Positions 4,445 to 60,527 of a DNA stretch of 64,000 nucleotides are shown here, in pieces. The stretch covers positions 7,702-71,701 of the forward strand of contig JAITOR010000075.1 of assembly GCA_031289855.1 (NCBI GenBank). The letters run 5' to 3'. The translations under genes were made by a program, and so were the position numbers. Origin of the DNA: Rickettsiales bacterium (GTDB taxonomy: Bacteria; Pseudomonadota; Alphaproteobacteria; Rickettsiales; UBA1997). Under the pieces are notes generated by a model. That model did no database searches. It was not told where the DNA came from and saw nothing but the letters and a program-made list of their open reading frames with translations. Each line of letters opens with the position of its first letter. Within the stretch, counting starts at the first letter, position 1.

Positions 4445-4687
4445 AATTATTTCCTATAATTTATTAAACATAATCAATATTATCACAAAAAAAAAGCAAG
4501 TTTATTTGATTAATTATTAATATTATTTTTATTTATTTAATAATAATAATATTAGTGAAAGATAAACTCGTCATCTATAATGGATATAATATTAGAAAGT
4601 GTGATAATGAAAGTGATAAGGATAGGAATAACCAAAGAAGAATAGGGATAGAAGTATGATTAAAGGAATATAAAAATATTAAAATGG

Positions 4688-9769: not shown

Positions 9770-10030
9770 AAATAGAGTGATTCTTTAAAATGGTTCACTC
9801 AAGACCATTCTTGCAATAACAAAATCTCTATTGAGATTAACCCGAAGGTTATGCAGCTAAAGCAAGGTCTGAATTATCTTCAGCATTTATGTTTTGAACT
9901 ATTACGGTTGTATCTTGCCGGACAAAATCATATTTTTCGATGTATGTCTAAGCTAATCATCCCCTTAAAAATGGTGGAGATGCCGAGTTCCGCCCTCGGG
10001 TCCATATCATTTATTATATATAACGTTTAT
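9770..10030 (-). ncRNA. ssrA: two-piece (circularly permuted) tmRNA; outer boundaries approximate
   Basis: On the minus strand the acceptor piece ends ...GGACCCGAGGGCGGAACTCGGCATCTCCACCA, with its 3' end at 9972. Seven nt later the coding piece starts GGGGATGATTAGCTTAGAC at 9964. GGGGATG pairs with CATCTCC and includes the G3:U70 alanine identity pair. The tag frame ends GCT GAA GAT AAT TCA GAC CTT GCT TTA GCT GCA TAA (9884..9849), giving ...AEDNSDLALAA. Confidence 0.8.
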
Positions 10031-10288
10031 CATCATAGTCATAAAGACGTACTTATTATAATATATATTACACAATAAGTCAAATTAATTCACCATAATT
10101 AAAAATAATTTTTTGATTTATTAAAATATAATAATATAAAATATTAATATTATTAATAATATGGTTATTTTGTAATTATGTTTTACCAGAAAAAAGGTTT
10201 TAGGATGAGATATGTTTTTATTGTAGTTATTGGCCTGTTACTGCTCTTTTATGTGATTGACAAAATATATTCAAATATAGGAGATTAT

Positions 10289-22500: not shown

Positions 22501-25500
22501 AAATATGGAAACCTTGAAGGCTCATCCGTTGACTCTCAATATCAACAAAGCGATGGAACTTATACAAAGTTTATTTATAATTCACCAACTGAATTAAAAA
22601 CAGAAGAACCAAAAATAATTAAATTTTTAACTCTAAACATTGATGATAATTTGGATTTTTCTCCTTCATTTGCAGAGGATATTGGAAGATACAAAATTAC
22701 ACTTATGGAAGGTGATAAATTTATGAATGGAAAACAACTTTCTGTACTTATAGCTCACAAAGGTTGGGATAAAAAAAATTTTAGTCAACAATGTGAAACT
22801 GGTTTTTGTGTTAAACAATATGTTGTAAAATATGACACAAGTAAAGAAAGTGAAGGAGGTTTGGAACCTAATACAAATTATGGTAAAGAATTAAGCGATG
22901 TAAATGATTATGAATTTGATTCATTTGGAGATCTTGTAAGTAAAGCCAAAATAAGTGAAAAAAAACTCATTTTAACATCTATAAAAAATGGACTAACATC
23001 TTTTGATTTAGTTGAACCAAAAGAATATGAAGATTTAAGAATATATTTTAAAGTTATTGATAGATTGCAATACGCTCCAAAGGAAACATTTAATGATGAT
23101 TGTCCTTTAAATACCATAGCAGAATATGAAACACGTTATAGTTGTACAGGCGCAACATATGATGAATTAAAAACCATTACATGTGTTTCGACAATTAATA
23201 ATGTAAGTGAAACAATCAGTGCTTGCCCCATTAGTGCCACCGATACAGCCTGTTCAAAGACGAGTGCGGGTTCATATATTACACCACCATATAGCATTAA
23301 AGTAAAAGTTGGTTGTAATCATGGCTTATATTATAATAATAATGGTGGTTATTCAGTGAAAATACAATCTCCAAAAGTTTTCACAAGTTTAAATTCCGTA
23401 ACCGATATGGATAGCGCTATAAAAACCAATGTTTTGTCATGGGGGGTTACAAAAATTCAAGGTTTCACAATTAGAAGATTGCTAAATCCTTTTATGGAAG
23501 TTATGGAAGGAATAAATATGGGATTACTGAATTTTAGGGGAGGATTTGAACCTTGTGTGAAAGAAATTGGAGAAACTGTGTCTTCAAAATGCACCTATTA
23601 CAATCCAAAAACAGATATTTTCGATCCACAATTTGGTGCAGGTTGCACATACGATCAACCAAATTGCTTTATAACATGCAACCTAATAAATGAAAGCGAT
23701 CCAGGATATGCTGGTAAATGTAAAATTGTGAATGATAATGGTGGTTATATTAAAAACTTTTATTCAAGAGTTATATTGGATTCGCAATTTCATGCAGTAG
23801 TAAGAATTTTATTAACTTTAATGATGACATTTTTGGGTTTATATCATTTGATAGGTATGTCAGAAATAACAAGTAAAGAGATGCTTACAAGAATTACAAA
23901 GATTGGAATAATTTATTTATTTATAGGGGAAACTGGATGGTTTTATTACAATAGATTTATCGTTCAATTTTTTGTAAGAGGTGCCGATTATTTGTCTTAT
24001 GCAGTGGCAGGTGCATTTGAGGAGACTCCAGGACTTACAAGAGAATTCACAAAGGGAATCTTTCTTGATAAAACGGTATTATTTGGTGCCACCGATAGAA
24101 ATTTAGCATTAATATTTTCAGCTGAAGTAAATTACAAAATATTAGGTCTATTGTTTACAAGTTATCTCGGCTGGTTATATGTAATATTATTATATTCGGC
24201 TCTCATAAACTATGTTTTTGCCTCACTTAATGCTTTGGTTTTGTTTATGATGTCAAAATTTTTGCTGATGGTAATGTTGACATTTGGTCCAATATTCTTT
24301 GTGCTATTGATTTTTGAAAAAACAAAGACTGCATTTGACAAATGGGTAATGGCACTTGTGGGACATGTGGTGGAGCAAGTATCTTTAATGGTTGGATTAT
24401 CATTATTTAATATGTTGGTTTATAATTTTATAAAATTTGTATTGAATTTTAGAGTATGTTGGACCCAAGTGTGGATTGTTGAACTTCCATTATTAGGTAG
24501 TATAAAACTATTTAATTTTTGGAGAGCAACCACTGGTACCACAACCGTTACAACGGCAATGAATGCAATGCCAGGATTATTTAGAGTATTGATTATATAT
24601 ATCATTGCAGATTTAATGAAAGGATTTATAGAATTGGTGAGAAATTTTTCCAACGATATTGCAAAATCTGGTTTAAAATTAGGAGATAGGGTTGGTGGAA
24701 TTTTAGAAGAAGTTAACAGATATAAAGAGGGGGATGATGGTATAAAAGATTCTTTCACAAAAGGATTAAATGCCAAAAGAGATTCATTCTTTAAGAAGAT
24801 GGGATACCAGACAGAAGAAGAGGAAATGAAAGAACAAAGTGATGAAAAGAAAAATAATATAAAAATAAGACAGGGTGAAAATGCTGGAAAAGAGGCAAGA
24901 AATGATCTTGCCGCAAAGGCACATATAGAATCAACAAAAAAGGCAAAAGAATCTGCTGAAAAATTTGTAAATAATAAAGGAGATGCTGCTAAAAATAAAC
25001 ATCTTGAAGAAAAAGGTCAAGAGGCAAGAGAAGTGGCTGAAAATGCATTTAAATCTAAAAAAAATAACAAAAAATTGTCTCCAGAGGAACTTGAAAAAGG
25101 AGCAAGAGAAGAGGGAGATAAGGCCGAAAAAGAAGCAAAAGAAAATGCAGACAATATTAAGGAAGCAGAAAGTAAGGCAACAGAAGCAAAAGAGAAAGCA
25201 CAAAAAGATGTGACAGGTATAAAAGCAGCCGAAAAAGAAGCATATAAATCTTCATATAACGAAATGGCGAGCACAGAAAAACTTGATGAAGCTTACAAAA
25301 ATGCATTTACAGCAAAAGCCGGGGCGGATAATTGGGGCAAAGAGGCAAGCACAAAAGCTGATAGTGTATTTGGTTTCATTGCATCAAAGGCATGGCATGC
25401 CGCAAGAGATGGCAAAGCAAGCACAAAAGCTGATAGTAGCACAATAGATAAACAAAATGAGATGACAAAAGTTGTTAAAAAAGCAAAGGATAAGGACGAT

Positions 25501-26343
25501 AAAAAGGAATTTGATAAAAAACATGATGAAAAATTAAAAGAGGAAGGTCATGGATTTTTAGCAAGAAGATGGGCCATGAGAAAAAATGCTCTTACGGGTG
25601 GTAGAAAACATAGTGGAGTTGGTATAACGCCATTAGGAAAAACCACAAGTAATTATAGAGATGCAGCGCTTAAGGAACAAAATGAAAAGAAAAATAAAGA
25701 TAAAGAAATGCTTGAATACAGAAATGAAATAGCACAAGAATCAAGACAAAAGAAAATTGAATCTGACAGAGAACTTGAGAACCACAAAAAAACAGGGGAA
25801 TATAAAGAAGATTTAAGGGATGAAACAAATAAATTACAAAAAGAATGGATGAAGGAAAATAGTTTTACTTCGTATGATAAATTTATAAAAAATGGAACTG
25901 TTGAACAGAAAAAAGCATATGGAAAACTTGGAGAAAAGGCAAAAAAGAATGTTGAAAGTAAATATCTAAAAAAGAGAGCAGAGGCGAAAGCTGCTGAAGA
26001 AAAAGATGCATCTGCAACAGCATCAGAAGAGGCAACACCAAAAAAAACGGAAACAGAAGAGGCAACACTAAAATCAGAGGAGGAGGCAACATCAAAAAAA
26101 ACGGAAACAGAAGAGGCAACACCACCTGAAGCAGAAACAGGTGCTGAAGCCAATGATGCAACACAACCAGAGATACCGGAAGTTCCATCGGAAGTACTTC
26201 CTCAGCCTTTAGAGGGGGAGGCTATACCACCACCTAAAACGGAAATATCAGCAAAAAGAAGAAAAAAGGCATCACATCGCGGAAGAGCAACAATTCCGGA
26301 TGGTTCACCTGAACCAATGGATGAACCGGAGGAAACTGAATGA
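19600..26343 (+). CDS. giant (2,247 aa) lipoprotein with a VirB6/TrbL-like polytopic membrane core
   Basis: The lipobox is LLVSC, with Cys at aa 19. A Cys-rich soluble region of about 1,375 aa follows. A cluster of hydrophobic helices spans about aa 1396-1672 and contains TFGPIFFVLLIFEKTKTAFDKWVMALVGHVV. That segment parallels the VirB6 segment AIGPLILVGYIFDRTRDIAAKWIGQLITYGL of A. tumefaciens as I recall it. A K/E/A-rich low-complexity tail of about 575 aa carries short tandem repeats. Confidence 0.6.
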   Translation: MFFKKFFCSLLLITLLVSCEGANCIDANDFGEFDVHTMAIESQKTLCKWEETDTSDGNGDYEIERCLRDASGARSIRNPDIDCTITFNEGTSGYAKVKEALKSQNITKGFMEKYFTLNNESQCGTDYKKLLTAFYAEGLEDCISTCETKHKASNPVSEDVYEPEWKPADLILEVGREFYIKATGEIDLLGEKERSVQYLAGSINMNKKTTINTIFAIKTNTDMTFSGNWITTKNGVVDKNYGEIDGNQPNLQKRIEFLRRGVMYLQPLPSVKIQGMTIIGEVNEIGSYTGPDVELDKTKISCLVNENLPYDGYPTTCKVDYGVEELPDDFSIAALTESQRIALANNELYKLDPFMSKSKAGYVLTPDIIDYMTKMPLKGYSCATTFNANYGIYRRNCDDGKIDRSIGFNNGYLVPKAFVFTNETQGGNDDYQMDINGLVFPVKIMVRVYGGIRGECKVGIKMPAALGVNDLDPSNEVDGFYKVTIPANDKWHYINDIKNKPIIFGKNTFFTIKETTEGRVNVRNENQYNLALKVVSPSFDEGNRPQWTAAPGASLYPNTFVVPPIPSKGTPNEIIDTENHPAPCGEGMVVMLMPQNEIVIKESGFVSIKSFLKDKIYTCNAADDGSEVFCQDGANGGGNPPINRTFNLKYTILNPNVNASATTFAVKSENFYEKSTSEIVGSSNKYYPKFNDLMIPVSAIGSVSTTTWSSKFFVRKGQVIRFDETSWFGIEGSNGDGFEVKEKFLKYDNFNIKKNIGEGLIMHIEKRPSFLCTGEAEESIFNSSCQKIKKDDGTVDCRVPYSQYCSTMNSQAEVDRYCPLGCYKVEVGGGGEAEHKVEINEGWGIALLKGDSTIKNQSFYVDNNEKESNNCSYPPESLPESFEDPMSVQKCIECRNYIESNPDASIELVNKVSLTQCYDLENYTGSIKVLENKNPFINSETGEGDYNKKTFDLLGVKKLNSIFSQDAKYGNLEGSSVDSQYQQSDGTYTKFIYNSPTELKTEEPKIIKFLTLNIDDNLDFSPSFAEDIGRYKITLMEGDKFMNGKQLSVLIAHKGWDKKNFSQQCETGFCVKQYVVKYDTSKESEGGLEPNTNYGKELSDVNDYEFDSFGDLVSKAKISEKKLILTSIKNGLTSFDLVEPKEYEDLRIYFKVIDRLQYAPKETFNDDCPLNTIAEYETRYSCTGATYDELKTITCVSTINNVSETISACPISATDTACSKTSAGSYITPPYSIKVKVGCNHGLYYNNNGGYSVKIQSPKVFTSLNSVTDMDSAIKTNVLSWGVTKIQGFTIRRLLNPFMEVMEGINMGLLNFRGGFEPCVKEIGETVSSKCTYYNPKTDIFDPQFGAGCTYDQPNCFITCNLINESDPGYAGKCKIVNDNGGYIKNFYSRVILDSQFHAVVRILLTLMMTFLGLYHLIGMSEITSKEMLTRITKIGIIYLFIGETGWFYYNRFIVQFFVRGADYLSYAVAGAFEETPGLTREFTKGIFLDKTVLFGATDRNLALIFSAEVNYKILGLLFTSYLGWLYVILLYSALINYVFASLNALVLFMMSKFLLMVMLTFGPIFFVLLIFEKTKTAFDKWVMALVGHVVEQVSLMVGLSLFNMLVYNFIKFVLNFRVCWTQVWIVELPLLGSIKLFNFWRATTGTTTVTTAMNAMPGLFRVLIIYIIADLMKGFIELVRNFSNDIAKSGLKLGDRVGGILEEVNRYKEGDDGIKDSFTKGLNAKRDSFFKKMGYQTEEEEMKEQSDEKKNNIKIRQGENAGKEARNDLAAKAHIESTKKAKESAEKFVNNKGDAAKNKHLEEKGQEAREVAENAFKSKKNNKKLSPEELEKGAREEGDKAEKEAKENADNIKEAESKATEAKEKAQKDVTGIKAAEKEAYKSSYNEMASTEKLDEAYKNAFTAKAGADNWGKEASTKADSVFGFIASKAWHAARDGKASTKADSSTIDKQNEMTKVVKKAKDKDDKKEFDKKHDEKLKEEGHGFLARRWAMRKNALTGGRKHSGVGITPLGKTTSNYRDAALKEQNEKKNKDKEMLEYRNEIAQESRQKKIESDRELENHKKTGEYKEDLRDETNKLQKEWMKENSFTSYDKFIKNGTVEQKKAYGKLGEKAKKNVESKYLKKRAEAKAAEEKDASATASEEATPKKTETEEATLKSEEEATSKKTETEEATPPEAETGAEANDATQPEIPEVPSEVLPQPLEGEAIPPPKTEISAKRRKKASHRGRATIPDGSPEPMDEPEETE
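26026..26121 (+). repeat. intragenic imperfect tandem repeats (EEAT modules) in the tail of the giant gene
   Basis: GAAGAGGCAACA or GAGGAGGCAACA occurs at 26026, 26056, 26080 and 26110. AAAAAAAACGGAAACAGAAGAGGCAACA occurs twice. Confidence 0.8.
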
Positions 26344-29809: not shown

Positions 29810-30940
29810 TTGTTTGTAGATGAAAAAAATAAACAAAATATATATTACTCAATAAATAAAAATGCAGATATTATTTATGAGTTGCGAGATGTGGGAGACT
29901 CGTGTCTGAAACAAAACTTTGTATCTGTAACTGAATTTAAAAAACCAAATGGAGTGAATCTGCATGAATATTGCAGTTTTGGTTATTACTGGCATCCAGA
30001 CCCTACGAAGCCCAATGGACTTCCATACATAAAAAAAGATGGTATAATAAATGTAGAGGCTAATAAAGGTTGTAAAGTGGCATTAAAAAATATGGCAGAA
30101 AGTGTTTTTCATCTTGCGGTGGCTGGACATTATTTGCAAAACAAGATTTATACAGATTATGCGATAAATCTTTTATATACTTGGTTTGTTGACAAGGATA
30201 CATATATGAATCCAAATTTAAAGTTCGCACAAATAATTCCAGGTATTGATATGATTAGAGGCATTGGAATTATAGATGGACTACCATTTATAACAATTTG
30301 TCATGCTCTTGAATATATTAATAATCCAATAATTGATGATATGAAAAAATGGTTTAGTGAGTATTTGCATTGGTTGAATAGTAGTGAATATGGAAGAATG
30401 TTGACTAAAAATAACAAAAATAATCATATATCCTATTACAATGCACAACTCATGTGTTATGCGATTTTCACAGACAATGAAAAAATCATCCAAGAGTGTG
30501 TTGAAAGATATAAAATAATTTTACAAACCCAAACAAATGATGAGTGTGCTTTTACTGCGGAATTAACGAGAACTAGAAGTTTACATTATTGTTTGTTTAT
30601 GTTGGAAAGTCTTGTTATTACCTGCGAATTAGCATTTCAAAGAGGCATAGATTTATGGAAATACACAACTAATTGTGGGAAGAATATAGAAAAATGTATA
30701 GATTTTATGTTTCCATACATTAAAAAGCCTTTTAGATGGCCATTTCCACAAATAATTGATGAATATATTGCGCCGCAATCTGGATTGCAACTTGGGGCAA
30801 TTAGGTTGGGAAGAGATGATTATAGAATATTGGATGAAAAAATGAGAGATGAAATGAAAACAATTTATCCTTTTCTTCATATCGATGAATTAAAGGTGCC
30901 TTGTATGGGTGAATTGTGTTTTTTGGAAGGATATTTCTAA
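29810..30940 (+). CDS. alginate lyase family protein (PF05426-like polysaccharide lyase)
   Basis: It has NNKNNHISYYNAQL (the NNHxYW-type motif) and AELTRTRSLHYCLFMLESLVITCELAFQRGIDLW, which resembles the AlgL-type core. It uses a TTG start and I saw no obvious signal peptide. Confidence 0.55.
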   Translation: MFVDEKNKQNIYYSINKNADIIYELRDVGDSCLKQNFVSVTEFKKPNGVNLHEYCSFGYYWHPDPTKPNGLPYIKKDGIINVEANKGCKVALKNMAESVFHLAVAGHYLQNKIYTDYAINLLYTWFVDKDTYMNPNLKFAQIIPGIDMIRGIGIIDGLPFITICHALEYINNPIIDDMKKWFSEYLHWLNSSEYGRMLTKNNKNNHISYYNAQLMCYAIFTDNEKIIQECVERYKIILQTQTNDECAFTAELTRTRSLHYCLFMLESLVITCELAFQRGIDLWKYTTNCGKNIEKCIDFMFPYIKKPFRWPFPQIIDEYIAPQSGLQLGAIRLGRDDYRILDEKMRDEMKTIYPFLHIDELKVPCMGELCFLEGYF

Positions 30941-37944: not shown

Positions 37945-38919
37945 TTACAATATTAATAGTTTTCTTGATATACTTTTTATTCTTTTATCTTCACTTTTTC
38001 TTAATAAAAAATATCCCGTCAATCTTTCGGCAATCATACCAATATCTCTAAATTTTCTACTATCTTTTGGTAATTTTTCCTCTAATTTAAATAATATAGG
38101 AAATATCCAATTGGAATATTCAAAAAATAATTCTCTCTTCATTATAAATATATTATTAAAATAAATTTTGTCACCCTCAAAAAATTTTTTCACATCTTGA
38201 TATTGTGATGGGTATTTATCTTTAATAAAAGTCATGGTTTCATTAAAAATATCTATACTAACCGCTTTGTTATATGGCATCATGTATTGAAAGTAAACGC
38301 TTAAAACGTTTCTTAACTGTGTTGTTACTAAATCCATACCCTCCATAACATCTTCTATTGCTCTGTATTCCAGCAGTTTTCCATAATGATAAACTCCAAT
38401 ATATTCCGGATTTCCAATTTTATCATAGTTTTTCCATGCCCAATAAATACCAGTCATCTCATTCCAATATCTATTGTAGCGAGAAACATTGTCACCAGTA
38501 TCATCACCTATCATGTTATCATTCAACCATTTATGGGGGTGGAGCAGAGTTTTTTTATAGTGCTCTTTGAAATCAGTTGCTATTTCTTCACCTACCTTGG
38601 CAATACTTCTACCACAATGTATTGGAAGTATTACTTTGTTTTGCCAAAGTGTATAAGGTTTGTGATAACAGGCAATAATTTTGATGTTATATCTTGTTTT
38701 ATCATCTGGATTATCATATCTGTATTTTTTTATTTCAATTGGTTTTTTTAAATTAATTTGCTCCTCAAGTTGAGCCAATATTGTTCTATCAAATGTACAA
38801 TGTGAATAAAATTTTTTTAAATTAACTGCCAATTGTTCTATCAAATATACATATGAATGAAATGAAATTAAAATAAATGATATGACGATAATATTTGAAT
38901 AATATTTATTTTTTAACAT
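37945..38919 (-). CDS. DUF4422-domain putative glycosyltransferase, paralog 1
   Basis: An N-terminal TM anchor is followed by IKIIACYHKP...LPIHCGR...GDDTGDNVS...YWAWKNY...IGVYHYGK and FIMKRELFFEYSNWIFPILF. This is the DUF4422 pattern (DNTGDNIS...YWxWKN...HYRR). It is clearly homologous to 50606..51604. Confidence 0.65.
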   Translation of the reverse strand: MLKNKYYSNIIVISFILISFHSYVYLIEQLAVNLKKFYSHCTFDRTILAQLEEQINLKKPIEIKKYRYDNPDDKTRYNIKIIACYHKPYTLWQNKVILPIHCGRSIAKVGEEIATDFKEHYKKTLLHPHKWLNDNMIGDDTGDNVSRYNRYWNEMTGIYWAWKNYDKIGNPEYIGVYHYGKLLEYRAIEDVMEGMDLVTTQLRNVLSVYFQYMMPYNKAVSIDIFNETMTFIKDKYPSQYQDVKKFFEGDKIYFNNIFIMKRELFFEYSNWIFPILFKLEEKLPKDSRKFRDIGMIAERLTGYFLLRKSEDKRIKSISRKLLIL

Positions 38920-41496: not shown

Positions 41497-41499
41497 TTA

Positions 41500-41871
41500 T
41501 TTACTTCAACATTTCTATGTACTTCGCCAATCCTTTTTTCACCTATATCTCCATTCTTTCTCTTTTTCGTTTACTTCATCCTGATTATTTCCATTTTTGC
41601 ATAATCTATCTACGTTGGATATAACTATTTTATCTTCTTTTTTTGTTGTTCGTTCTATTAATTCTGAAAAAACCACTTTTTGATAAAATAAAGTATTGAC
41701 AATTTCTCATAAGTTCCAATTCGAAATATAGTTCACTATCATTATTCATATCAAAATAATTAAATGAATATTTATATTTGATATATCTTTTACAAGATTT
41801 TGTAATATATTATTATTCAATCTTGCCTTCACTAAATTCATAGAACTTGAAAAGATAAATGTAATATTCAT
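41500..41871 (-). pseudogene. degraded ORF downstream of cassette copy D
   Basis: On the minus strand, an ATG at 41871 opens a 41-codon ORF (MNITFIFSSSMNLVKARLNNNILQNLVKDISNINIHLIILI). The reading then continues in two other frames (MNNDSELYFELELMRNCQYFILSKSGFFRINRTNNKKRR, then KKEDKIVISNVDRLCKNGNNQDEVNEKEKEWRYR). One frame break lies at a poly-A run. Ancestral identity unknown. Confidence 0.3.
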
Positions 41872-41875
41872 TTAT

Positions 41876-41907
41876 ATTATACATCATAAGTGTAAAGTAC
41901 GGAAGTA
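41876..41907 (-). promoter_or_regulatory. cassette copy D, upstream of the degraded ORF
   Basis: The minus strand reads tacTTCCGTactttacacttatgatgTATAAT. It is nearly identical to copy C over more than 44 nt. Confidence 0.45.
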
Positions 41908-41985
41908 CATAAAGAAAATAAATATTAATTATTATAATTGTTTTTTGTTTTTATTTCAAATTTACACGTTATATATTAATTATAT

Positions 41986-42063
41986 TTCACAATATAAATT
42001 CACAATATAGATTCACAATACAAATTTACAATACAAATCCACAACGCATCTTCACAATCTATT
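41986..42063. repeat. tandem array, 6 x 13 bp, core TTCACAATA
   Basis: Units start at 41986, 41999, 42012, 42025, 42038 and 42051. The cores read ttcacaata, ttcacaata, ttcacaata, tttacaata, tccacaacg and ttcacaatc. Confidence 0.8.
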
Positions 42064-42248
42064 TATTTATCGAACAACATATTTAATTCATTAAATATCA
42101 CCCAGTTAAATATGTTTTTTCAATTAATTATTTATATGTTTATGTTGTTATTGATAATCAATTATATAATCTTATTATATAACAATAAAACCAAATACGC
42201 AAATTAATATTACACTATGCCTATATTTTTATTTTTAAGCCACATTTT

Positions 42249-45712: not shown

Positions 45713-46005
45713 TAAAAAATAAAAATAGTTTTATTGCAATATTGATTGGGCTTTTACCTCATTGTTTTTGTTGTGGAATTCCCTTTGCCGTAATACTAAT
45801 AAATCTTTTTTTTGGCACAAATATAGTATTTCAACTTAAATTTTTTAATGAATGGACTGAATATTTATTGTTTGCAATATCGGGTTTTTTTATAACAAAA
45901 TTATATCTAACAAAAGATAAAAGCAGGGAAGAGAGAATTATTTTATATATTACAACTGGAATTTTTATATTTAATTTAATTGGACATTTGGTATTTGATG
46001 CTTAA
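45709..46005 (+). CDS. hypothetical small membrane protein (98 aa) with an HCFCCG motif
   Basis: There are three hydrophobic segments. The start overlaps the upstream stop as ATGA. Confidence 0.4.
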   Translation: MIKNKNSFIAILIGLLPHCFCCGIPFAVILINLFFGTNIVFQLKFFNEWTEYLLFAISGFFITKLYLTKDKSREERIILYITTGIFIFNLIGHLVFDA

Positions 46006-48013
46006 ACTTTTTTTTATTTTTAGTTTGTTTTGTGGCATTGTAAATGCTACTAATGTTGAAAATTTATTTTATAACACAAACAAAGATATTAAATTGAAAA
46101 TGGAATTCACCGAAAAAGATGAAAAAATTTTCAAAAATACATTAAAAATGATTGAAAAAAAAGATTTCCCTAAAGCATTGTCTTTGGCAAATTCTATGGA
46201 AAGTGAATATTTACGAGATGGTATGATAATTTATGTTTTGTGGCAAAAATACAAAATGATTGATAACGAGGATATAGATAACAATTTTGCTGATTTAATG
46301 GCTTTTATTGAAAGATATAAATATCTGCCAGATATAGAAAATTTAAAAAGAAATTTGGAAAATATGTATTTAAAGAGTGATATTTCGAATGAATATGTGG
46401 AAAACTATTTTAAAAACAATAAACCTATTAAAATTGAAACCGCAATCAAACTATTAAAAAATGGAATTTTAACCAACCACATAAAAGTATTTAACGATTA
46501 TGAATTGTATGGTGAAAATTTGGTATATTTTATAAATCTTTTTAAAGACAAGTTAAATACAAATGGATATGTAAATAAAATTGAATCCTTAATTTTGAAT
46601 AAAAAATTTATTGATGCGAGATATATAATGAAATTTTTGAATAAAAACGATGCTTCTTTATATGAAACGATTATACAAATAAATACAACTCCAAAAAACT
46701 TTAATGAACTTTTAAAAGGAATATCATATTTTTCAAAAAGTAATGAATTGTTATTGTATACAAAATTTATGTATTATCAAAAAAAAGGAGATAATGAAGA
46801 GGCAAAAAAATTGATAATGGAAGTGCCCCGAGATTCAAAGTTTATTGATAAATGGTGGTATTATCAAAAATATTATGTTAGAGAGTATTTAAAGGACAAA
46901 GATTATGTTAAATCGTATTTTTTGGCAACAAATCAAAATTTAAAAAGAGGAACTATTGATTATGCAGAAGCAGAATGGTTAGCTGGTTGGGTTGCACTTG
47001 ATTTTTTAAATGAAAAAGGATTAGCATACAAACATTTTAAAAATTTGTTTGATAATGTATCGTATCCCGCAAGTAAAGCAAGAGCCGCATATTGGCTGGG
47101 TAGGGTGGATGAGGATATGGCAAATATAAAAAATGCTTTAAGATGGTATGAAATTGGCACACAATTCTCTTTATATTATTATGGACAATTATCTTGGTAT
47201 GCAAAAAACAGAATAACGCAAACAGCATCTTTAACTAATGAAATGCCACTTCCAAAACAACCTACATTCACTCAAAATGAAGAAAACGATGCCATAAATA
47301 ATGAAATTGCAGGATTAGCATATTTGGTGGCAAAAACCGGTGGAGAAAGAAAAATTTACATTGAACTTTTTAGAAGTGCAATAATTAGTGCAAAAAGCAC
47401 TGGTGAAAAAGTTGCGATTTTTGAAATTGTAAAAAATATAAAAGATGAAGTATTAATTACAAATATAGCAAAGTTTTTAGCGTATAGACAAATTTATTTT
47501 ATAGATAATTTATTTCCAACTCTAACCATGATAAATTTAAAAAACTCAAACTCACATTTAATACATGCAATCATAAAACAGGAAAGTGGATTTCATGTAT
47601 TGGCTTCAAGTAGGGTTGGAGCAAGTGGATTTATGCAAATTATGCCGGCAACAGCAAAAATTTTAGCCAAACAATTAAAATTAAAATACAATAAAAAGCA
47701 ATTACAAACAAATCCAATTTATAATATTTTGTTAGGTTCTCAATATATAAACTCATTAATTAGTCAGTTCGATGGATCGGAAGTCTTGGCAATTGCTTCA
47801 TATAATGCTGGCCCTGGTGCTGTAAAACGATGGATTAGTAGGTATGGGGATCCAAGAAAAATGACAGAAATTAGAGATATTGTGCGATGGATTGAAAGCA
47901 TTGAATATAACGAAACAAGAGATTATGTGCAAAAAGTGGTTGAAAATGGTGTGGTGTATCAATATATAATTGGGAGTTGGGATGGTGTAGGGGGGGGATA
48001 TCATGTGAAATAA
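45998..48013 (+). CDS. slt: soluble lytic murein transglycosylase (Slt70-like)
   Basis: The ORF opens at 45980. The start was set at MLKLFFIFSLFCGIVNA (a signal peptide). A superhelical N-domain precedes the catalytic ESGFHVLASSRVGASGFMQIMPATA and ASYNAGPGAV motifs. Confidence 0.85.
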   Translation: MLKLFFIFSLFCGIVNATNVENLFYNTNKDIKLKMEFTEKDEKIFKNTLKMIEKKDFPKALSLANSMESEYLRDGMIIYVLWQKYKMIDNEDIDNNFADLMAFIERYKYLPDIENLKRNLENMYLKSDISNEYVENYFKNNKPIKIETAIKLLKNGILTNHIKVFNDYELYGENLVYFINLFKDKLNTNGYVNKIESLILNKKFIDARYIMKFLNKNDASLYETIIQINTTPKNFNELLKGISYFSKSNELLLYTKFMYYQKKGDNEEAKKLIMEVPRDSKFIDKWWYYQKYYVREYLKDKDYVKSYFLATNQNLKRGTIDYAEAEWLAGWVALDFLNEKGLAYKHFKNLFDNVSYPASKARAAYWLGRVDEDMANIKNALRWYEIGTQFSLYYYGQLSWYAKNRITQTASLTNEMPLPKQPTFTQNEENDAINNEIAGLAYLVAKTGGERKIYIELFRSAIISAKSTGEKVAIFEIVKNIKDEVLITNIAKFLAYRQIYFIDNLFPTLTMINLKNSNSHLIHAIIKQESGFHVLASSRVGASGFMQIMPATAKILAKQLKLKYNKKQLQTNPIYNILLGSQYINSLISQFDGSEVLAIASYNAGPGAVKRWISRYGDPRKMTEIRDIVRWIESIEYNETRDYVQKVVENGVVYQYIIGSWDGVGGGYHVK

Positions 48014-48040
48014 AAAACCCTCTTAAAAGAGGATTTTTTG
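48012..48040. terminator. bidirectional terminator between slt and the SBP gene
   Basis: The sequence is aaaaaCCCTCTTaaAAGAGGattttttg, flanked by A and T runs. Confidence 0.55.
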
Positions 48041-48918: not shown

Positions 48919-48947
48919 TTGACTTTTAATATTATTATTGTTAGAAT
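48919..48947 (+). promoter_or_regulatory. sigma70-type promoter (TTGACT-N17-TAGAAT) of the MBOAT gene
   Basis: Read from the sequence. It lies 15 nt upstream of ATG 48963. Confidence 0.5.
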
Positions 48948-48962
48948 ACGATTAATTAAATT

Positions 48963-50432
48963 ATGTTTTGTGATTTTATGTCATTTGTTATTCCCACATT
49001 TTTGTTTATTTTTTTACCATTTTTGGCAGTTTTTAATTTGTTAGTTAATGTGCGAGTCGGTAAAAATAACAATGCAATTGTAAAAAATAAGTTTTTGTAT
49101 TACTTGACATATTTTAAAATATCAGTGTCAAACACAACAAAAATTCAAAATTTTTTATTATTTGTAGCGAATTTGCTTTTTTATGCTTTTTCTGATTTAA
49201 GAATGTTAAATTTTGTAATTCCACTTGCTTTTGTAACATTTGCTGGTGGCGTTCTTATTGAAAAAATAAAATTTAAAAAAACAACAACTCTATTTTTTGT
49301 TTTGATGAATACTATAATTTTATCATTCTTTAAATATTGGAAGTTGGATGGAGTAATTGCTCCAATTGGAATTTCTTTTATTTACTTTAAATTAGTATCT
49401 TATCTTGTTGATATTTATTATAAAAAAATAAAGGCAACAAATGATTTTTATAACTTCTTGCAATATATAATGTTTTTTCCACAAGTTTTAATGGGGCCTA
49501 TTCAACGATATAATGACTTTAATAAAGAATTACAAAGTAGAAGGATTACTTTTGATGAATCTATTATTGGGGTTAAAAGATTTGTTTTTGGCCTTGCAAA
49601 AAAAATACTTATTGCTGATGTATTGGGGGAGGTTGTGAATAAAATTTTTGCTTTACAGGTCGTAGATTTTAATACACATATTGCTTGGTTGGGTGCTATT
49701 TTTTATACTTTTCAACTTTATTACGATTTTTCTGGTTTCACTGATATGTCAATTGGTGTAGCAAAAATATTTGGTTTTAATAATATACCTGAAAATTTTG
49801 ATTATCCATACTTGTCAAAATCTATAACGGAATTTTGGAGAAAGTGGCACATAACACTTGGTTCGTGGTTTAGAGATTATGTATATATACCACTTGGGGG
49901 CAACAAAGTTAGTAAATTTAGAATGTATGTAAATCTTTGGATTGTATTTTTATTGACTGGTATATGGCATGGACAAGGAATATTTTCATTAGATATTTTA
50001 CATTCTGGAATTTGGATTTTTGTTGTATGGGGAATATGGCATGGATTTTTCAATTGTATTGAAAAAGTAACAGGATGGAATAAACCGAAAGAAAGAAAAA
50101 TAATGTCCGCAATTCAACACATTTACTGCCTTCTTGTTGTAATGTTTGGTTGGGTTATTTTTAGAAGCAAAGATTTAGAATATGCTTTTGATTATTTAAA
50201 AAATATGTTTGGTGTATTAAAAATAAATTCACAGTTTGCAAACTGGTATTATATAGATAGAGTTAGTTTGTTGACATTAGCGGTGGCGATTTTATGTTCT
50301 TTTCCTGTGTTTAAAAAATGGAAAGAAGGAAGTAATTTGTTGATTAACATATGGATAGTCATACTATTGATTGTGAGTGTTGCATTTGTATCTGCGAATA
50401 CATATCAAAGTTTTTTATATTTTCAATTTTAA
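48963..50432 (+). CDS. MBOAT family O-acyltransferase (AlgI/PatA/DltB-like)
   Basis: The protein is polytopic. FWRKWHITLGSWFRDYVYIPLGGN, together with downstream WHG histidines, is the MBOAT hallmark. Confidence 0.8.
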   Translation: MFCDFMSFVIPTFLFIFLPFLAVFNLLVNVRVGKNNNAIVKNKFLYYLTYFKISVSNTTKIQNFLLFVANLLFYAFSDLRMLNFVIPLAFVTFAGGVLIEKIKFKKTTTLFFVLMNTIILSFFKYWKLDGVIAPIGISFIYFKLVSYLVDIYYKKIKATNDFYNFLQYIMFFPQVLMGPIQRYNDFNKELQSRRITFDESIIGVKRFVFGLAKKILIADVLGEVVNKIFALQVVDFNTHIAWLGAIFYTFQLYYDFSGFTDMSIGVAKIFGFNNIPENFDYPYLSKSITEFWRKWHITLGSWFRDYVYIPLGGNKVSKFRMYVNLWIVFLLTGIWHGQGIFSLDILHSGIWIFVVWGIWHGFFNCIEKVTGWNKPKERKIMSAIQHIYCLLVVMFGWVIFRSKDLEYAFDYLKNMFGVLKINSQFANWYYIDRVSLLTLAVAILCSFPVFKKWKEGSNLLINIWIVILLIVSVAFVSANTYQSFLYFQF

Positions 50433-50507
50433 TACTCATTATGTTATTTGCTTTTTTTTATTCAAACATTGTTTTATTGCGACTTGTAGAGGTAAATTCC
50501 CCCCATA

Positions 50508-50533
50508 AGAGAGAGAGAGAGAGAGAGAGAGAG
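50508..50533. repeat. (AG)13 dinucleotide microsatellite
   Basis: There are 26 nt of perfect AG alternation. A C6 run precedes it and a polypyrimidine tract (50544..50579) follows. Confidence 0.95.
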
Positions 50534-50605
50534 TAAATACACACTTTTTCCCCATCCTTTTTCTCTTCTTCCTCCTCCCATGTTTTTTAGAATAGTGGGG
50601 TATAT

Positions 50606-51604
50606 ATGAATAAAATATTGCTCAATTTATGTTCCATTTTTATAATAAAAAAGAAAAAAAGAGAGTATTTTAAAATAAGATACAAAAATAAAACTTTATT
50701 AAGTTGTTTTTGTCCAAAAAAAATTTCGAACATGATTGATAAAATAAATAGAATAGACAATATTGACACAAATAATAGATATAATCGTATAAACATACAA
50801 ACCAATAGGGATTATTCCATAGAAGGTTGGAAATATGATAATCCATTGGATAAAACGAAATATGATATAAAAATTATCATTACTTATCACAGACCAGCAT
50901 TTTTGTTTCAACATAAAGTTTTGCTTCCTATACATGGTGGTAGGGATATAAAAGACAATAATATTATAAAAAGTGGTGCTGGAGAATTTATAAAAAGCGA
51001 ACAATCGATAAAATGGCTGCAAGATAATATGATTGGTGATAACACGGGAGACAATATTTCTTATATGAATAAAAATATAAGCATTGAGTCATCCTTGTAT
51101 TGGGTTTGGAAACATTATGATGAGATTGGAAATCCAGCCTATATTGGTAATTTTCATTTTAGGAAATTATTTCCATTTAGTGCCTTACATGATTATGCAA
51201 TTTATGATTTAATCTTGCCTATTAAAAGACAAACTGGAAAAGGATGTGATCTTTTAAATGAAATAAATGAAATCACAATGAATATTATAAAAAAACACTC
51301 ACCAGAATTAGTTGAAGAGATAAGAAAATGGTATTTAAAAGAAGCGAAAGACATTTATTATGATGAGATGTATATAATGACAAAAAAATTGTTTTTTGAA
51401 TATTGTGAATGGATTTTTCCAATTATATTTGATTTATACGAAGTTACAACAAAACAAAAAATACAAATTTGCTCTTGGGATATCAAAGGAGATGTGAGGC
51501 AAGTCGCTTGGGTTGTTGAAAGATTGACGGGCTGGTGGTTGTGGAAAAAAACACAAGATAAAAATATCAAATACAAAGAAATGCCCATAGTTATTATTGA
51601 ATAG
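50606..51604 (+). CDS. DUF4422-domain putative glycosyltransferase, paralog 2
   Basis: IKIIITYHRP...LPIHGGR...GDNTGDNIS...YWVWKHY...IGNFHFRK and YIMTKKLFFEYCEWIFPIIF show homology to 37945..38919. Confidence 0.65.
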   Translation: MNKILLNLCSIFIIKKKKREYFKIRYKNKTLLSCFCPKKISNMIDKINRIDNIDTNNRYNRINIQTNRDYSIEGWKYDNPLDKTKYDIKIIITYHRPAFLFQHKVLLPIHGGRDIKDNNIIKSGAGEFIKSEQSIKWLQDNMIGDNTGDNISYMNKNISIESSLYWVWKHYDEIGNPAYIGNFHFRKLFPFSALHDYAIYDLILPIKRQTGKGCDLLNEINEITMNIIKKHSPELVEEIRKWYLKEAKDIYYDEMYIMTKKLFFEYCEWIFPIIFDLYEVTTKQKIQICSWDIKGDVRQVAWVVERLTGWWLWKKTQDKNIKYKEMPIVIIE

Positions 51605-51747
51605 TTTTGTGTTGTTTTCTTTGTGTTTCATTTATGTTAAAAATTCTTATGACTTATGTTGTATAAACATACTTTACTATTTTTTTTATTTTTAATATTA
51701 ATCACTTCTTTTTGTCAAGTTGGTAGGAATTCACACATTAACTATTG

Positions 51748-51778
51748 AATAAATTTAATATTTTTTATTAAATTTATT
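51748..51778. terminator. perfect 13-bp AT-only inverted repeat between convergent genes
   Basis: The sequence is AATAAATTTAATA-ttttt-TATTAAATTTATT. The stem is weak because it is all A:T. Confidence 0.3.
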
Positions 51779-51877
51779 GCATTGGAATACCACATCACAT
51801 ACATCACCATCATTCATTAAAATTAATTGGCTATGTTTTTGAGAAAATAAAAATCGCATTTTTAAATATATTACACC

Positions 51878-52282
51878 CTATTCTGTAATTGCAACGCTTT
51901 TTTTTCCAAGTTTTGTCAAGTCTTCTTTAATTCTGGCACTTTTTCCTGTTAAATCTCGTAAATAATAAAGTTTTGCTTTATTTACAATGCCACTCTTTAC
52001 AACTTTAATTTCTTCCACCAATGGAGAATGAAATTGAAATTTTCTTTCAACACCAATTCCAGCACTTATTTTTCTTACCACAAATGTGGCATTAAAATTT
52101 TTTGCATCCTTACTTTTTGCGAGCACTGTTCCTTCGAAATTTTGAAGTCTTGTGTTTGCTCCTTCAGTAATTCTGTATCCAACTGATATAGTGTCGCCAA
52201 CATTGAACTCTATAAATTTTTTTGCATTTTCAGCAATTTTTTGCTTTTTTGCATTGTTAAACTTTTCTACTAAATTTACCAT
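51878..52282 (-). CDS. rplS: 50S ribosomal protein L19
   Basis: ORF 51878..52366, trimmed to MVNLVEKFN (52282), which is preceded by AAGGAGA. The L19 core is FNVGDTISVGYRITEG...RLQNFEG. Confidence 0.92.
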   Translation of the reverse strand: MVNLVEKFNNAKKQKIAENAKKFIEFNVGDTISVGYRITEGANTRLQNFEGTVLAKSKDAKNFNATFVVRKISAGIGVERKFQFHSPLVEEIKVVKSGIVNKAKLYYLRDLTGKSARIKEDLTKLGKKSVAITE

Positions 52283-52298
52283 AATACATTTCTCCTTA

Positions 52299-52661
52299 TT
52301 ATTTTTCTGGTCTATCAACAAATTCAATAATTGCCATTGGGGCAGCATCACCAGTTCTAAAACCATATTTCAAAACTCTTGTATAACCACCACTTCTATT
52401 GGTAAATCTTTTGGCAATTTCAAACAATTTGTTCACCACATCATTGTCTCTCAATACAGCCAACGCTCTTCGTCTGTCTGCCAGTGTTCCTTTTTTACCC
52501 AATGTAATCAATTTTTCCACCACAGGTCTTAAATCTTTTGCCCTTGGTAAAGTTGTCTTAATTTGTTCGCTCTTGATTAAAGAAGCTGATAAATTTTGCA
52601 ACATTGATTTTCTATGTGCACTTGGCATATTAAATTTTCTACCACTCATTCCATGTCTCAT
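52299..52661 (-). CDS. rplQ: 50S ribosomal protein L17
   Basis: [24 protein letters not shown] is the canonical L17 N-terminus. Confidence 0.96.
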
Positions 52662-52670
52662 TTTTTTCTC

Positions 52671-53672
52671 CTATTTATTTTTATCTTCAATAATTTTTTC
52701 CCAGTTTGGAATTATAGTACCAAAACTCAATCCCAACGATTTTAAAGTTTCCTTTATTTCAGTTAATGATTTTTTACCAAAATTTGGTAAATTTGTCATT
52801 TCTGATTCCTGTTTTTGAATTAAATCACCAATGCAATTTATATCCATGGCTTTTAAACAATTAAAACTTCTAACCGATAAATCAATATCCTCAATCTTTT
52901 TTAAGAATGAAGGATTTATTTCATTTTTTTTATCAGTGGCTTCGACTTTTTTAACTTTCTTTTCAAAATCATTAAATTTAGTAAATATATCTAATTGAGA
53001 TTGTAAAATTTTAGCTCCGAATGAAATTGTTTCCAACGGATCAATCGTCTTTTTTGTTTTTACTTTCAATTCCAACATATCGTAATTAATTTTATTTCCT
53101 TGTCTTGCATCAGTAACTTTGTAAGATACATTTTCAACTAAATTAAATAGAGAATCAATCTTAATTACACCAGCCTCTTTTACACTATCAGTGAAAGATG
53201 CAGGTTGATAACCAATTCCATATTCTGCCACCATTTCCGCTTCAAAAGATATGCCACTTTTTTCAATATTACATATCACAAAATCCCTATTAAGAATCTC
53301 ACCACCATTTTCAATTTTAATATCCCTTGCCAATACTTCACCTTTTTCATGCACTTTAATAACTAATTTTGATGGAGTGGTTGTTTCTTTTGTAAAAAGA
53401 ATGTTTTTTATATTCATTATTATTTCATAAACATCCTCTCTAATACCTTCAATTGTATCATATTCATGAAACACACCATTGATTTTGACTGATGTTACTG
53501 CAAAACCACCAATTGAACTTAATAATACTCGTCTTAAAGCATTTCCTAATGTAATACCATATCCTTTTTCCAATGGTTTCGCTATAAAAATTGCCTCAGT
53601 ATCACTTATTTTTTTAATTTCAACTTCGGGAGTATTTATCAAATTGTTCCAATTATTTTGTAAATTAACCAT
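52671..53672 (-). CDS. rpoA: DNA-directed RNA polymerase subunit alpha
   Basis: It has the NTD (GYGITLGNALRRVLLSS) and the CTD (LSVRSFNCLKAMDINCIGDL). Confidence 0.96.
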   Translation of the reverse strand: MVNLQNNWNNLINTPEVEIKKISDTEAIFIAKPLEKGYGITLGNALRRVLLSSIGGFAVTSVKINGVFHEYDTIEGIREDVYEIIMNIKNILFTKETTTPSKLVIKVHEKGEVLARDIKIENGGEILNRDFVICNIEKSGISFEAEMVAEYGIGYQPASFTDSVKEAGVIKIDSLFNLVENVSYKVTDARQGNKINYDMLELKVKTKKTIDPLETISFGAKILQSQLDIFTKFNDFEKKVKKVEATDKKNEINPSFLKKIEDIDLSVRSFNCLKAMDINCIGDLIQKQESEMTNLPNFGKKSLTEIKETLKSLGLSFGTIIPNWEKIIEDKNK

Positions 53673-53693
53673 ACTTTAATCCTTTTAATATTA

Positions 53694-54098
53694 TTAAACC
53701 CTTCTTCTTTTTGGTGCTCTACAACCATTGTGTGGAAGATGTGTTAAATCTTCAATACTTGTAACCACAATATTGCTACCCAAAAGAATTCTCAAAGCAG
53801 ATTCTCTACCTACTCCACCACCCAACACTTGTACCTTTGCAGTTTGTAAGCCACATTCTTTTGCTTTTTCAACTGCTTCATTTGTGGCTACTTGTGCGGC
53901 ATATGGAGTTGATTTTTTTGAACCCCTAAAACCCATTTTTCCAGCAGATGACCAAGATATAACATTACCTTGTGTATCAGCAACTGAAACGATCGTATTG
54001 TTAAATGATGCTTGAATTGAAATTATTCCTGCAAGGACATTTCTTTTCTTTTTTGCAATCTTTTTAACATTCGCTTTACTATTTTTTGTATTTTCCAT
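53694..54098 (-). CDS. rpsK: 30S ribosomal protein S11
   Basis: It has [30 protein letters not shown] and [13 protein letters not shown]. Confidence 0.97.
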
Positions 54099-57995: not shown

Positions 57996-58067
57996 TTTAA
58001 CTCCTATAAAACCTATATATAAAATATAATTAATAGTTTTTATTGTCAATTTTATTAAAAATTAAAT

Positions 58068-58096
58068 TTGCAAAAAGATATTGTATATATTATAAT
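58068..58096 (+). promoter_or_regulatory. sigma70-type promoter (TTGCAA-N17-TATAAT) of the 387-aa hypothetical gene
   Basis: Read from the sequence. A 44-nt leader with GAGG follows before the ATG. Confidence 0.5.
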
Positions 58097-58140
58097 GAAA
58101 TAATCCCCCCTATTATTAATAAAACAAGATGAGGTAAAAG

Positions 58141-59304: not shown

Positions 59305-59351
59305 TTGCCTTAATTTACAAAAAAATAGGCAATATTATTTTGTTGCCTATT

Positions 59352-60527
59352 TTATTTTTTAAAATATTTCTTTATTGTTTCAGCCAATGCTTCCACTATC
59401 TTATCTCTGTAACTTGCACTCCTTATCATCCTTTCTTCATTATTATTTGAAATAAATCCAATTTCCAACAAAATTGATGCCGTATTCGCCCCAGTTAAAA
59501 CAGCAAAATTTGCAAATTTTCTCATATTGCTACTTAAACTTCTTACATTTCGTTTTTTAAGTTCCTGTTCCAAATATCCAGCAAATTTTTTTGAATCATT
59601 CATTGCCTTTACTCTTGATAAATCAACAAGTGTATTTATTGTGTCCTGATATTCACCATATAAATCTGCACCACTTATAATATCAGATTTATTTTCTTTT
59701 TGGGCTAATTGTGCCGTTCTTGTGTCACTTGCTGTTTGTGATAAAGTATAAATCGAAAGCCCTTTTGCATTCCTGTTTGTCGTAGCATCGGCATGTATAG
59801 AAATGAACAAATCTCCTTTTCTTTTTCTTGCAAATGCAATTCTATCCATCAATTCGATGTAAGTATCGTTATTTCTTGTTAAATACACGCTATAAAGTCC
59901 AGTTTTATCCAAAATTTCCTTCAAGGATTTTGCATAGATTAGGGTAAGAATTTTTTCTTTTGTCCCCCTTTGGCCTTGAGCCCCTGGGTCTTTCCCACCA
60001 TGTCCCGCATCTATTATGATTACGGGTTTTGTTTTGGGAATTGAGGTAAGTTTGCTTTCCTTTTTCGTTTTTGTTTTTTTTGGCTCTTCTATCCTTTTTG
60101 TATTCAAATCGTCTATTAAGGTTTCTATTTTATCTTTTTTTTCCTCCTTTTCAAATTCTAAATCTATAACTATCCTATGATATTTATTATTTTTATCTGG
60201 TTTTAAATAAAAATCTTTAATACTTTTCGGTTTTATGTTTAGGTCAAACACAATCCTTGAATCCGTATTTGAAAATTTTCCAATCCTCAAAGAATCAACG
60301 ACTTCATTTGATGCAAATGATGGAGCTTTGACATTATAGTTTTCTGTACTTTGCAAATCAATTACCAATCTATCAGGATTTTTCAATAAAAATGGATTGT
60401 AATTTATTTTCGTGCTATTGTCTATCACAATCCTTTCGGTGTATTTTCCTGTATTTAATCTAATATTTGATACAATATTTGCATACAATGTATTTACACA
60501 CAATAAAAGTAAAATTATTTTTCGCAT
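59352..60527 (-). CDS. amiC: N-acetylmuramoyl-L-alanine amidase (AMIN + Amidase_3, AmiC-like)
   Basis: A signal peptide and an AMIN-like N-domain precede the catalytic motifs IIIDAGHGGKDPGA and ISIHADA. The ATG overlaps the upstream stop as TAATG. Confidence 0.85.
   Translation of the reverse strand: MRKIILLLLCVNTLYANIVSNIRLNTGKYTERIVIDNSTKINYNPFLLKNPDRLVIDLQSTENYNVKAPSFASNEVVDSLRIGKFSNTDSRIVFDLNIKPKSIKDFYLKPDKNNKYHRIVIDLEFEKEEKKDKIETLIDDLNTKRIEEPKKTKTKKESKLTSIPKTKPVIIIDAGHGGKDPGAQGQRGTKEKILTLIYAKSLKEILDKTGLYSVYLTRNNDTYIELMDRIAFARKRKGDLFISIHADATTNRNAKGLSIYTLSQTASDTRTAQLAQKENKSDIISGADLYGEYQDTINTLVDLSRVKAMNDSKKFAGYLEQELKKRNVRSLSSNMRKFANFAVLTGANTASILLEIGFISNNNEERMIRSASYRDKIVEALAETIKKYFKK

Follow-up and report, generated by a model that had tools for sequence, protein, structure and literature searches.

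Does a long dinucleotide repeat ahead of a surface-glycan type gene influence the expression of this gene, or is it a passenger in the spacer? The question is posed by a perfect (AG)13 microsatellite between an MBOAT O-acyltransferase gene and a DUF4422 gene. Both lie in a stretch of 64,000 nucleotides, here called the window, from a metagenome-assembled genome (MAG) labelled 'Rickettsiales bacterium'. A preliminary description of this DNA had implied that changes in repeat length alter promoter spacing and thereby switch the DUF4422 gene, possibly together with read-through from the MBOAT gene.

The AG block and its flanking genes

The two genes are co-directional and are separated by a spacer of 173 nt (50433-50605, + strand). 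The spacer carries a C6 run (50499-50504) immediately 5' of the AG repeat. The repeat itself spans 50508-50533, i.e. -98 to -73 counted from the ATG (50606); according to Tandem Repeats Finder it has a period of 2, 13.0 copies and 100% matches. A mixed linker, TAAATACACA (50534-50543), lies between the purine and the pyrimidine tracts and constitutes a predicted hairpin loop. The pyrimidine tract, ctttttccccatcctttttctcttcttcctcctccc, follows at 50544-50579 (-62 to -27). Of its 36 nt 35 are pyrimidines, interrupted by a single A, and it resembles a degenerate CT/CTT/CCT repeat. Next is a T6 run followed by TAGAAT (50583-50593, the hexamer at 50588-50593), a candidate -10 box without a usable -35. 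Finally, GTGGGG (50595-50600) is a weak Shine-Dalgarno-like element 5 nt 5' of the ATG. The preliminary description had located the C6 run, (AG)13, the pyrimidine tract, TAGAAT and the ATG at 50606 correctly. An upstream ORF of nine codons is also present (ATG 50580 to TGA 50607-50609, MFFRIVGYI). It overlaps the DUF4422 start as ATGA and is without a preceding Shine-Dalgarno element.

The upstream gene (48963-50432, + strand; NCBI MDR3290492.1) encodes an AlgI/DltB-like O-acyltransferase of the MBOAT family (Pfam PF03062, E 4e-24). An alignment with five homologues demonstrated that it is complete up to the invariant C-terminus ...NTYQSFLYFQF; the true start probably is M6 at 48978. An alginate-lyase-family gene (29810-30940, + strand) is located in the same window as this AlgI-like gene. 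The downstream gene (50606-51604, + strand; NCBI MDR3290493.1) codes for a DUF4422/GT111 (WbbM-like) protein of 332 amino acids. It scored 79.8 bits against Pfam DUF4422 (PF14393; cut-off 25) and matched the GT111 domain of Klebsiella pneumoniae WbbM (PDB 6U4B) with E 3e-13. DUF4422 has been equated with GT111 (PMC12269835). Both matches bear out the initial assignment as a putative glycosyltransferase, and by similarity the product is a probable galactofuranosyltransferase. The gene had been labelled the second of two DUF4422 paralogs, and rightly so: paralog 1, 37% identical, is at 37945-38919 on the minus strand.

The start codon of the DUF4422 gene is backed by homologues. The N-terminus MNK[IL]LLN..C.FIIKK is common with the homologue P0003 (MNKLLLNIICCFIIKKENRDKF in P0003 versus MNKILLNLCSIFIIKKKKREYF in the window gene). 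Between the repeat and ATG 50606 the DUF4422 frame contains two stops, at 50534-50536 (TAA) and 50588-50590. Because the start is secure and the in-frame stops bar an extension through the repeat, the AG/pyrimidine block is strictly intergenic. A translational frameshift switch was rejected, given the in-frame stops at 50534 and 50588 and the N-terminus confirmed by homologues.

Both flanking proteins, MDR3290492.1 and MDR3290493.1, are encoded on one 73,745-bp contig of the MAG. A two-piece alphaproteobacterial tmRNA (9771-10087, minus strand) and a VirB6/TrbL-like ORF of 2247 amino acids (19600-26343, + strand; with a 30-nt tandem repeat, 3.6 copies, at 26024-26124) are consistent with the Rickettsiales label. 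Two further features of the window are recorded here. An HK97-type phage capsid gene (5869-7032, minus strand) is a prophage or gene-transfer-agent remnant. A 13-nt direct-repeat array, TTCACAATA(C/T)AAA in 4.5 copies plus degenerate TCCACAA copies (41986-42058), sits in an unusually long AT-rich spacer of 752 nt (41497-42248) upstream of a methyltransferase gene; its core is similar to a DnaA-box or an iteron-type binding site.

Singularity of the repeat in the window and among relatives

How exceptional is such a tract in this DNA? A repeat scan of the 64-kb window found one other dinucleotide repeat of at least 5 units, an (AT)5. The AG-repeat lengths jump from (AG)3 to (AG)13 with no intermediates. 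Up to 4-5 units the dinucleotide-repeat counts fit a first-order Markov expectation, with (AG)13 as the single outlier, and in none of 30 first-order Markov simulations of the window did an (AG) repeat reach 5 or more units. Therefore, (AG)13 did not arise by chance, nor is it the tail of a genome-wide slippage process. A single, uninterrupted outlier in a genome of 29% GC argues against a genome-wide neutral process. Phase-variable dinucleotide repeats are called at 6 units or more (PMC6321876). With 13 perfect units the tract exceeds twice this cut-off and is of hypermutable length.

Composition sets the block apart as well. Among the non-coding tracts of at least 30 nt in the window, two alone consist of at least 93% purines or pyrimidines, namely the purine run at 50504-50539 and the pyrimidine run at 50542-50588. 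The GC content of the window is 29.4%. The spacer has a mean GC of 0.353, the highest among the 24 spacers of at least 60 nt, and its 81-nt core reaches 47%, a level otherwise found mostly in spacers that carry tRNAs or tmRNA. The preliminary description was thus right in calling the block richer in GC than the DNA around it.

Five G/C homopolymers of at least 6 nt are present in the 64 kb (at 3597, 23441, 47990, 50499 and 58105) compared to about 1.1 expected. The C6 run at 58105-58110 follows a 10/12 promoter-like site (58067-58096) and precedes the ATG (58141) of a 387-amino-acid ORF without a Pfam match; its context, AAT-CCCCCC-TA, is similar to that of the C6 run adjoining the AG repeat. 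The run at 47990-47997 is a G8, five codons 5' of the stop in an ORF with an SLT (lytic transglycosylase) domain (45980-48013). About 0.03 such runs are expected per 64 kb according to our own base-frequency estimate, and the length is above the poly-G cut-off for phase-variable tracts (at least 7). A one-base slip in this G8 would merely swap or lengthen the C-terminal tail.

Exact-protein look-ups of MBOAT and DUF4422 gave no match. One scan each of genome and metagenome contigs returned relatives at 26-32% identity only and no second copy of the locus of this species. The sole additional sequence from this organism was a Logan contig of the run SRR14710898, which does not extend to the repeat; the protein clusters of the two flanking genes contained no Logan fragments. 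The nearest relatives compared were the Ta2D MAG GCA_036245235.1 (MBOAT 63% identical) and a JGI contig. In these relatives MBOAT is followed by unrelated genes read from the other strand (SPOUT, TrmE) or by a further MBOAT gene plus YebC. Each of the DUF4422 homologues either abuts an upstream gene, murF-like or coding for an outer-membrane protein, or has a divergent promoter region. Hence the MBOAT-DUF4422 adjacency is not conserved in the Ta2D MAG and the JGI contig. No GA repeat was detected upstream of the DUF4422 homologues P0002, P0003 and P0004, and the AT-rich 294-nt spacer upstream of paralog 1 is free of simple-sequence repeats. Because the relatives have neither the gene adjacency nor the repeat, the AG block is lineage-specific and located at a gene-order break. 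Since the tract is absent in all paralogs and homologues examined and the adjacency is not conserved, a conservation argument for a function cannot be made.

Two further candidates were discarded. Paralog 1 as a second contingency gene was dismissed; the 'AATGA x6' reported by Tandem Repeats Finder at 38856-38885 is an imperfect AT-rich stretch and no true repeat. The block is also not a degenerate duplicate of the purine-rich 5' end of the gene (ATAAAAAAGAAAAAAAGAGAG at 50645): the alignment score of 17 was no better than that of shuffles or of other 200-nt pieces of the window.

The Ta2D relative carries tracts of its own. A G6 run (gcggggggtggg) is present in contig L009 at 942-947, 74-79 nt upstream of the P0003 start, which is roughly the position of the AG repeat in the window. 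Contig L010 (BTIB01000024.1) contains two direct copies of about 175 nt each at 4506-4740. Each copy carries TTGACA-N17-TAAAAT, then ATGAGTGGGA(T/C)TTTTT and then a run of G8 or G7. The order of promoter-like box, start codon and poly-G is a classical contingency-gene layout, here in the closest available relative. Together, the G8 and C6 tracts of the window and the tracts in Ta2D suggest that simple-sequence repeats are in use in this clade.

Transcription, folding and possible roles of the block

Is the spacer transcribed? The best promoter-like site of the region, TTGACT-17-TAGAAT with a TG element (48919-48947, + strand; 10/12 matches), precedes the MBOAT gene and is the likely source of transcripts entering the spacer. 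A scan of 50300-50800 revealed no terminator-like site. An intrinsic terminator formed by the block itself was rejected; between the predicted stem, which has many G.U pairs, and the U6 there is a gap of about 11 nt. Canonical terminators do exist elsewhere in the window, for example at 48019-48032 after the SLT-domain ORF and at 59322-59353. Because a promoter-like site upstream of MBOAT is combined with the lack of a terminator-like site, the spacer is probably transcribed. The read-through from MBOAT into DUF4422 that the preliminary description had considered is plausible, given that no terminator-like site separates the two genes.

The sense RNA 50495-50592 was predicted to fold with -22.7 kcal/mol (z -2.56; 2 of 200 shuffles folded as well). 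The repeat, as the left arm, pairs with the CU-rich tract as the right arm, and about 21.5 repeat-to-tract pairs are expected in the ensemble. In silico, stability grows monotonically with repeat number by about 1-2 kcal/mol per added AG unit. Replacement of the pyrimidine tract by native spacer 36-mers resulted in a mean fold of -8.0 kcal/mol, and 2 of 198 replacements were as good as the native tract. When the pyrimidine tract alone was shuffled with its composition preserved, 719 of 1000 shuffles paired at least as well. For this reason the modelled pairing is taken to follow composition and not a selected register. GTGGGG was predicted to be mostly paired with ..CUCCCA.. at any repeat number. 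Control of ribosome-binding-site sequestration by repeat number was rejected: the unpaired probability was about 0.1 at all n = 0-20. The predicted accessibility of the AUG was likewise constant across repeat numbers. A DNA cruciform (-3.6 kcal/mol, z +0.26) was also discarded, and a structured minus-strand RNA (z -0.77) found no support. Rfam 15 contained no family that matched at the gathering threshold. The best hit was mir-328 with 27 bits versus the required 70, and the sub-threshold matches over 50504-50579 were to generic miRNA-precursor-like hairpins.

We tentatively prefer, with a probability of about 40%, the reading that (AG)13 is a slippage-prone repeat which gives graded, heritable changes in GT111 expression, acting either via the transcribed leader or from a position upstream of a promoter. 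From the established behaviour of such long repeats we infer that replication slippage would add or remove AG units at high frequency. Because the tract is outside of a -35/-10 spacer and outside of the reading frame, a change in length would not be able to toggle the gene by promoter spacing or frameshift. Of the two routes for graded tuning we prefer the purine/pyrimidine leader. Transcripts of the spacer would come from MBOAT by read-through or be initiated at TTGTTT-18-TAAATT, a weak promoter that extends up to C6. The AG arm of the transcript would pair with the CU-rich arm to form a long, G.U-rich hairpin, and its stability might alter pausing, processing or stability of the GT111 message, comparable to the hmw1A leader of Haemophilus influenzae. 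Alternatively, the repeat may act as DNA, 65-95 bp upstream of the -35-less TAGAAT promoter, comparable to the (GAA)n repeat of vlhA. Graded tuning is favoured because a surface-glycan type enzyme is encoded downstream and because the flanking genes are intact. It is weakened because there is just one long repeat in 64 kb, and genomes with contingency loci usually have many.

Nearly as likely, the tract is a neutral microsatellite. It would then have originated by slippage expansion, or from a small insertion, in a dispensable spacer left by a lineage-specific rearrangement and would affect neither of the two genes. Its length may vary even so; the pyrimidine tract would represent the remains of a second repeat. 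Decaying host-restricted genomes do carry long neutral repeats such as the VNTR loci of Mycobacterium leprae. A neutral origin is in line with the lack of conservation in relatives and paralogs and with the position at a synteny break. Nor is the order of the pyrimidine tract optimised for pairing, a promoter is not defined, and the predicted accessibility of the ribosome-binding site does not depend on repeat number. Against it, the window displays no tendency to dinucleotide slippage elsewhere and no intermediate lengths. Furthermore, where mutation is biased towards AT, a G-containing repeat would not be expected to stay free of interruptions, except if it arose very recently or is actively kept up, and the tract is immediately in front of an envelope glycosyltransferase gene.

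Distinctly less probable is that the pyrimidine tract serves as a Rho-loading (rut) site which ends MBOAT transcription and is modulated by sequestration in the AG-repeat hairpin. The 48-nt segment 50534-50581 contains 19 C and no G and ranks third on the + strand of the window by C-minus-G, and an intrinsic terminator is missing after MBOAT although such terminators are used elsewhere (48019-48032 and 59322-59353). At the usual scale of 78 nt, however, the region is ordinary (rank about 5000 of 64000). With about 75% of the tract predicted to be paired with the repeat, Rho loading would be hindered. Moreover, termination would land in the GT111 gene which itself is without a convincing promoter.

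A classical transcriptional phase switch, in which the repeat alters the spacing and turns a TAGAAT promoter on and off, is very unlikely. In its favour, TAGAAT (50588-50593) agrees with the -10 consensus in 5 of 6 positions, and the same hexamer is the -10 element of the promoter-like site of MBOAT, where it is also near the ATG. Against it, the best candidate -35 hexamers match in 1-2 of 6 positions, and no hexamer pair scoring 9/12 or better was found on the + strand of the spacer 50433-50605. The repeat measures 26 bp, and TAGAAT is 54 bp beyond its 3' end. It can therefore not serve as the -35/-10 spacer: 26 bp do not fit into 16-18 bp, and the tract is outside any hexamer pair. Transcription would start about 7 nt after TAGAAT, and a leader of about 5 nt would remain from which the ribosome-binding site GTGGGG has been removed. 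With a 26-bp tract, no hexamer pair of at least 9/12 and a TAGAAT without a -35, the change in promoter spacing implied by the preliminary description was not upheld.

Could the block be an artefact of assembly or amplification, i.e. a chimeric join of contigs at low complexity or an inserted chimeric read? The sequence derives from a single MAG assembly. An independent Logan assembly of the same run (SRR14710898) yielded a contig which stops at 51395, short of the repeat, and does not cross it. Yet this contig is 100% identical to the window over 51395-54084, and the 26-nt tract is shorter than a sequencing read. Both flanks are alike in composition and have complete genes, and the nearest homologues are in the same Rickettsiales MAG group. 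An artefact is thus highly improbable. Position 51395, where the Logan contig breaks, falls within the DUF4422 gene, and the sequence there shares about 80% identity with a third paralog (L005 1979-2039); cross-talk between paralogs or a mixture of strains in the assembly graph may be the cause. Finally, that the repeat is part of a small minus-strand gene switched by frameshift (MGKKCVFT(LS)4Y..., 38 amino acids, 50439-50555) has a negligible chance: three minus-strand ORFs of 28-38 amino acids, one per frame, do span the tract, but all are below 40 amino acids, a size expected by chance, lack a well-placed ribosome-binding site and a homologue, and are directed into the 3' end of MBOAT.

Comparison with known repeat-controlled genes

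Simple-sequence repeats that work as promoter-spacer switches are (TA)n in hifA/B of H. influenzae, poly-A in vlp of Mycoplasma hyorhinis and poly-G/C in porA and opc of Neisseria meningitidis. As in the present locus, these repeats are intergenic, precede genes for surface structures and are subject to slipped-strand mispairing. They differ in that their repeats are between -35 and -10, which is not the case here. The (CTCTT)n of the Neisseria opa genes is an H-DNA-forming repeat that is part of the coding region and acts by frameshift. (AG)13 is a perfect homopurine/homopyrimidine mirror repeat for which an intramolecular triplex is possible in principle, and in this respect it is similar to opa; in contrast to opa it is intergenic.

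More similar is the (GAA)n repeat of the vlhA (pMGA) genes in Mycoplasma gallisepticum, an all-purine repeat upstream of the core promoter and outside of the -35/-10 spacer (PMC6258824). Like the bacterium examined here, M. gallisepticum has an AT-rich, reduced and host-associated genome. The distance from the vlhA repeat to the mapped start site downstream is about 40 nt, and only with exactly 12 units are the genes expressed (PMC6258824). The mechanism is incompletely understood (PMC6258824). The vlhA repeat and its conserved flanks are common to dozens of paralogs, whereas the AG repeat is restricted to one locus and is missing from the paralogs of the gene.

For Rickettsiales, a literature search yielded no more than a survey of short (AG)3 repeats in Anaplasma (PMC4516964), and loci of this kind are not known to have been characterised in the order. 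Judged by its sequence, the AG block qualifies as a genuine candidate for a contingency-type repeat ahead of a glycan gene. Should its length be constant, or should it have no effect, it would be of little consequence, an isolated microsatellite at the junction of a rearrangement. Either way it is a handy marker for strain typing of this organism. If it varies and tunes GT111, stochastic regulation of envelope glycans would extend from the usual mucosal pathogens, Haemophilus, Neisseria, Helicobacter, Campylobacter and Mycoplasma, to an uncultured Rickettsiales-like lineage.

For the leader route, the relevant precedent is hmw1A of H. influenzae. In its leader, a hairpin built from a repeat arm and a G-rich arm undergoes RNase III processing, and the level of expression follows the number of repeats (PMC12721329). 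In hmw1A/hmw2A the (ATCTTTC)n repeat is upstream of the start codon of a surface-related gene and supplies the left arm of the hairpin (PMC12721329), as the AG repeat is predicted to do. In both cases the right arm is of complementary composition: a pyrimidine-rich repeat faces a G-rich arm in hmw, and a purine repeat faces a C/U-rich arm in the window. The hairpin arms occupy similar positions, from -175 to -54 in hmw compared to -98 to -27 in the window, and hmw expression responds in a graded manner, not on/off. There are differences, too. The hmw unit has 7 nt and the hairpin 122 nt, compared to a 2-nt unit and about 75 nt. In hmw, transcription of the repeat, RNase III cleavage and length variation have been demonstrated, whereas the hairpin of the AG block is an in-silico prediction. 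In the window, the right arm pairs no better than its own shuffles. Graded tuning in its fullest form, namely an hmw-like leader module by which a population of a Rickettsiales-like, obligately host-associated bacterium would maintain heritable, graded differences in a galactofuranosyl-type surface glycan, is put forward as a rather unlikely proposition. If true, it would be the first repeat-driven contingency locus described in Rickettsiales and would imply that surface-glycan heterogeneity is selected even in protist- or arthropod-associated intracellular life. The poly-G runs at 47990 and in Ta2D (L010) would then be further members of a phase-variable set. Should the tract vary and tune GT111, it would join hmw as the second example of a recently described architecture, a leader hairpin with a repeat as one of its two arms.
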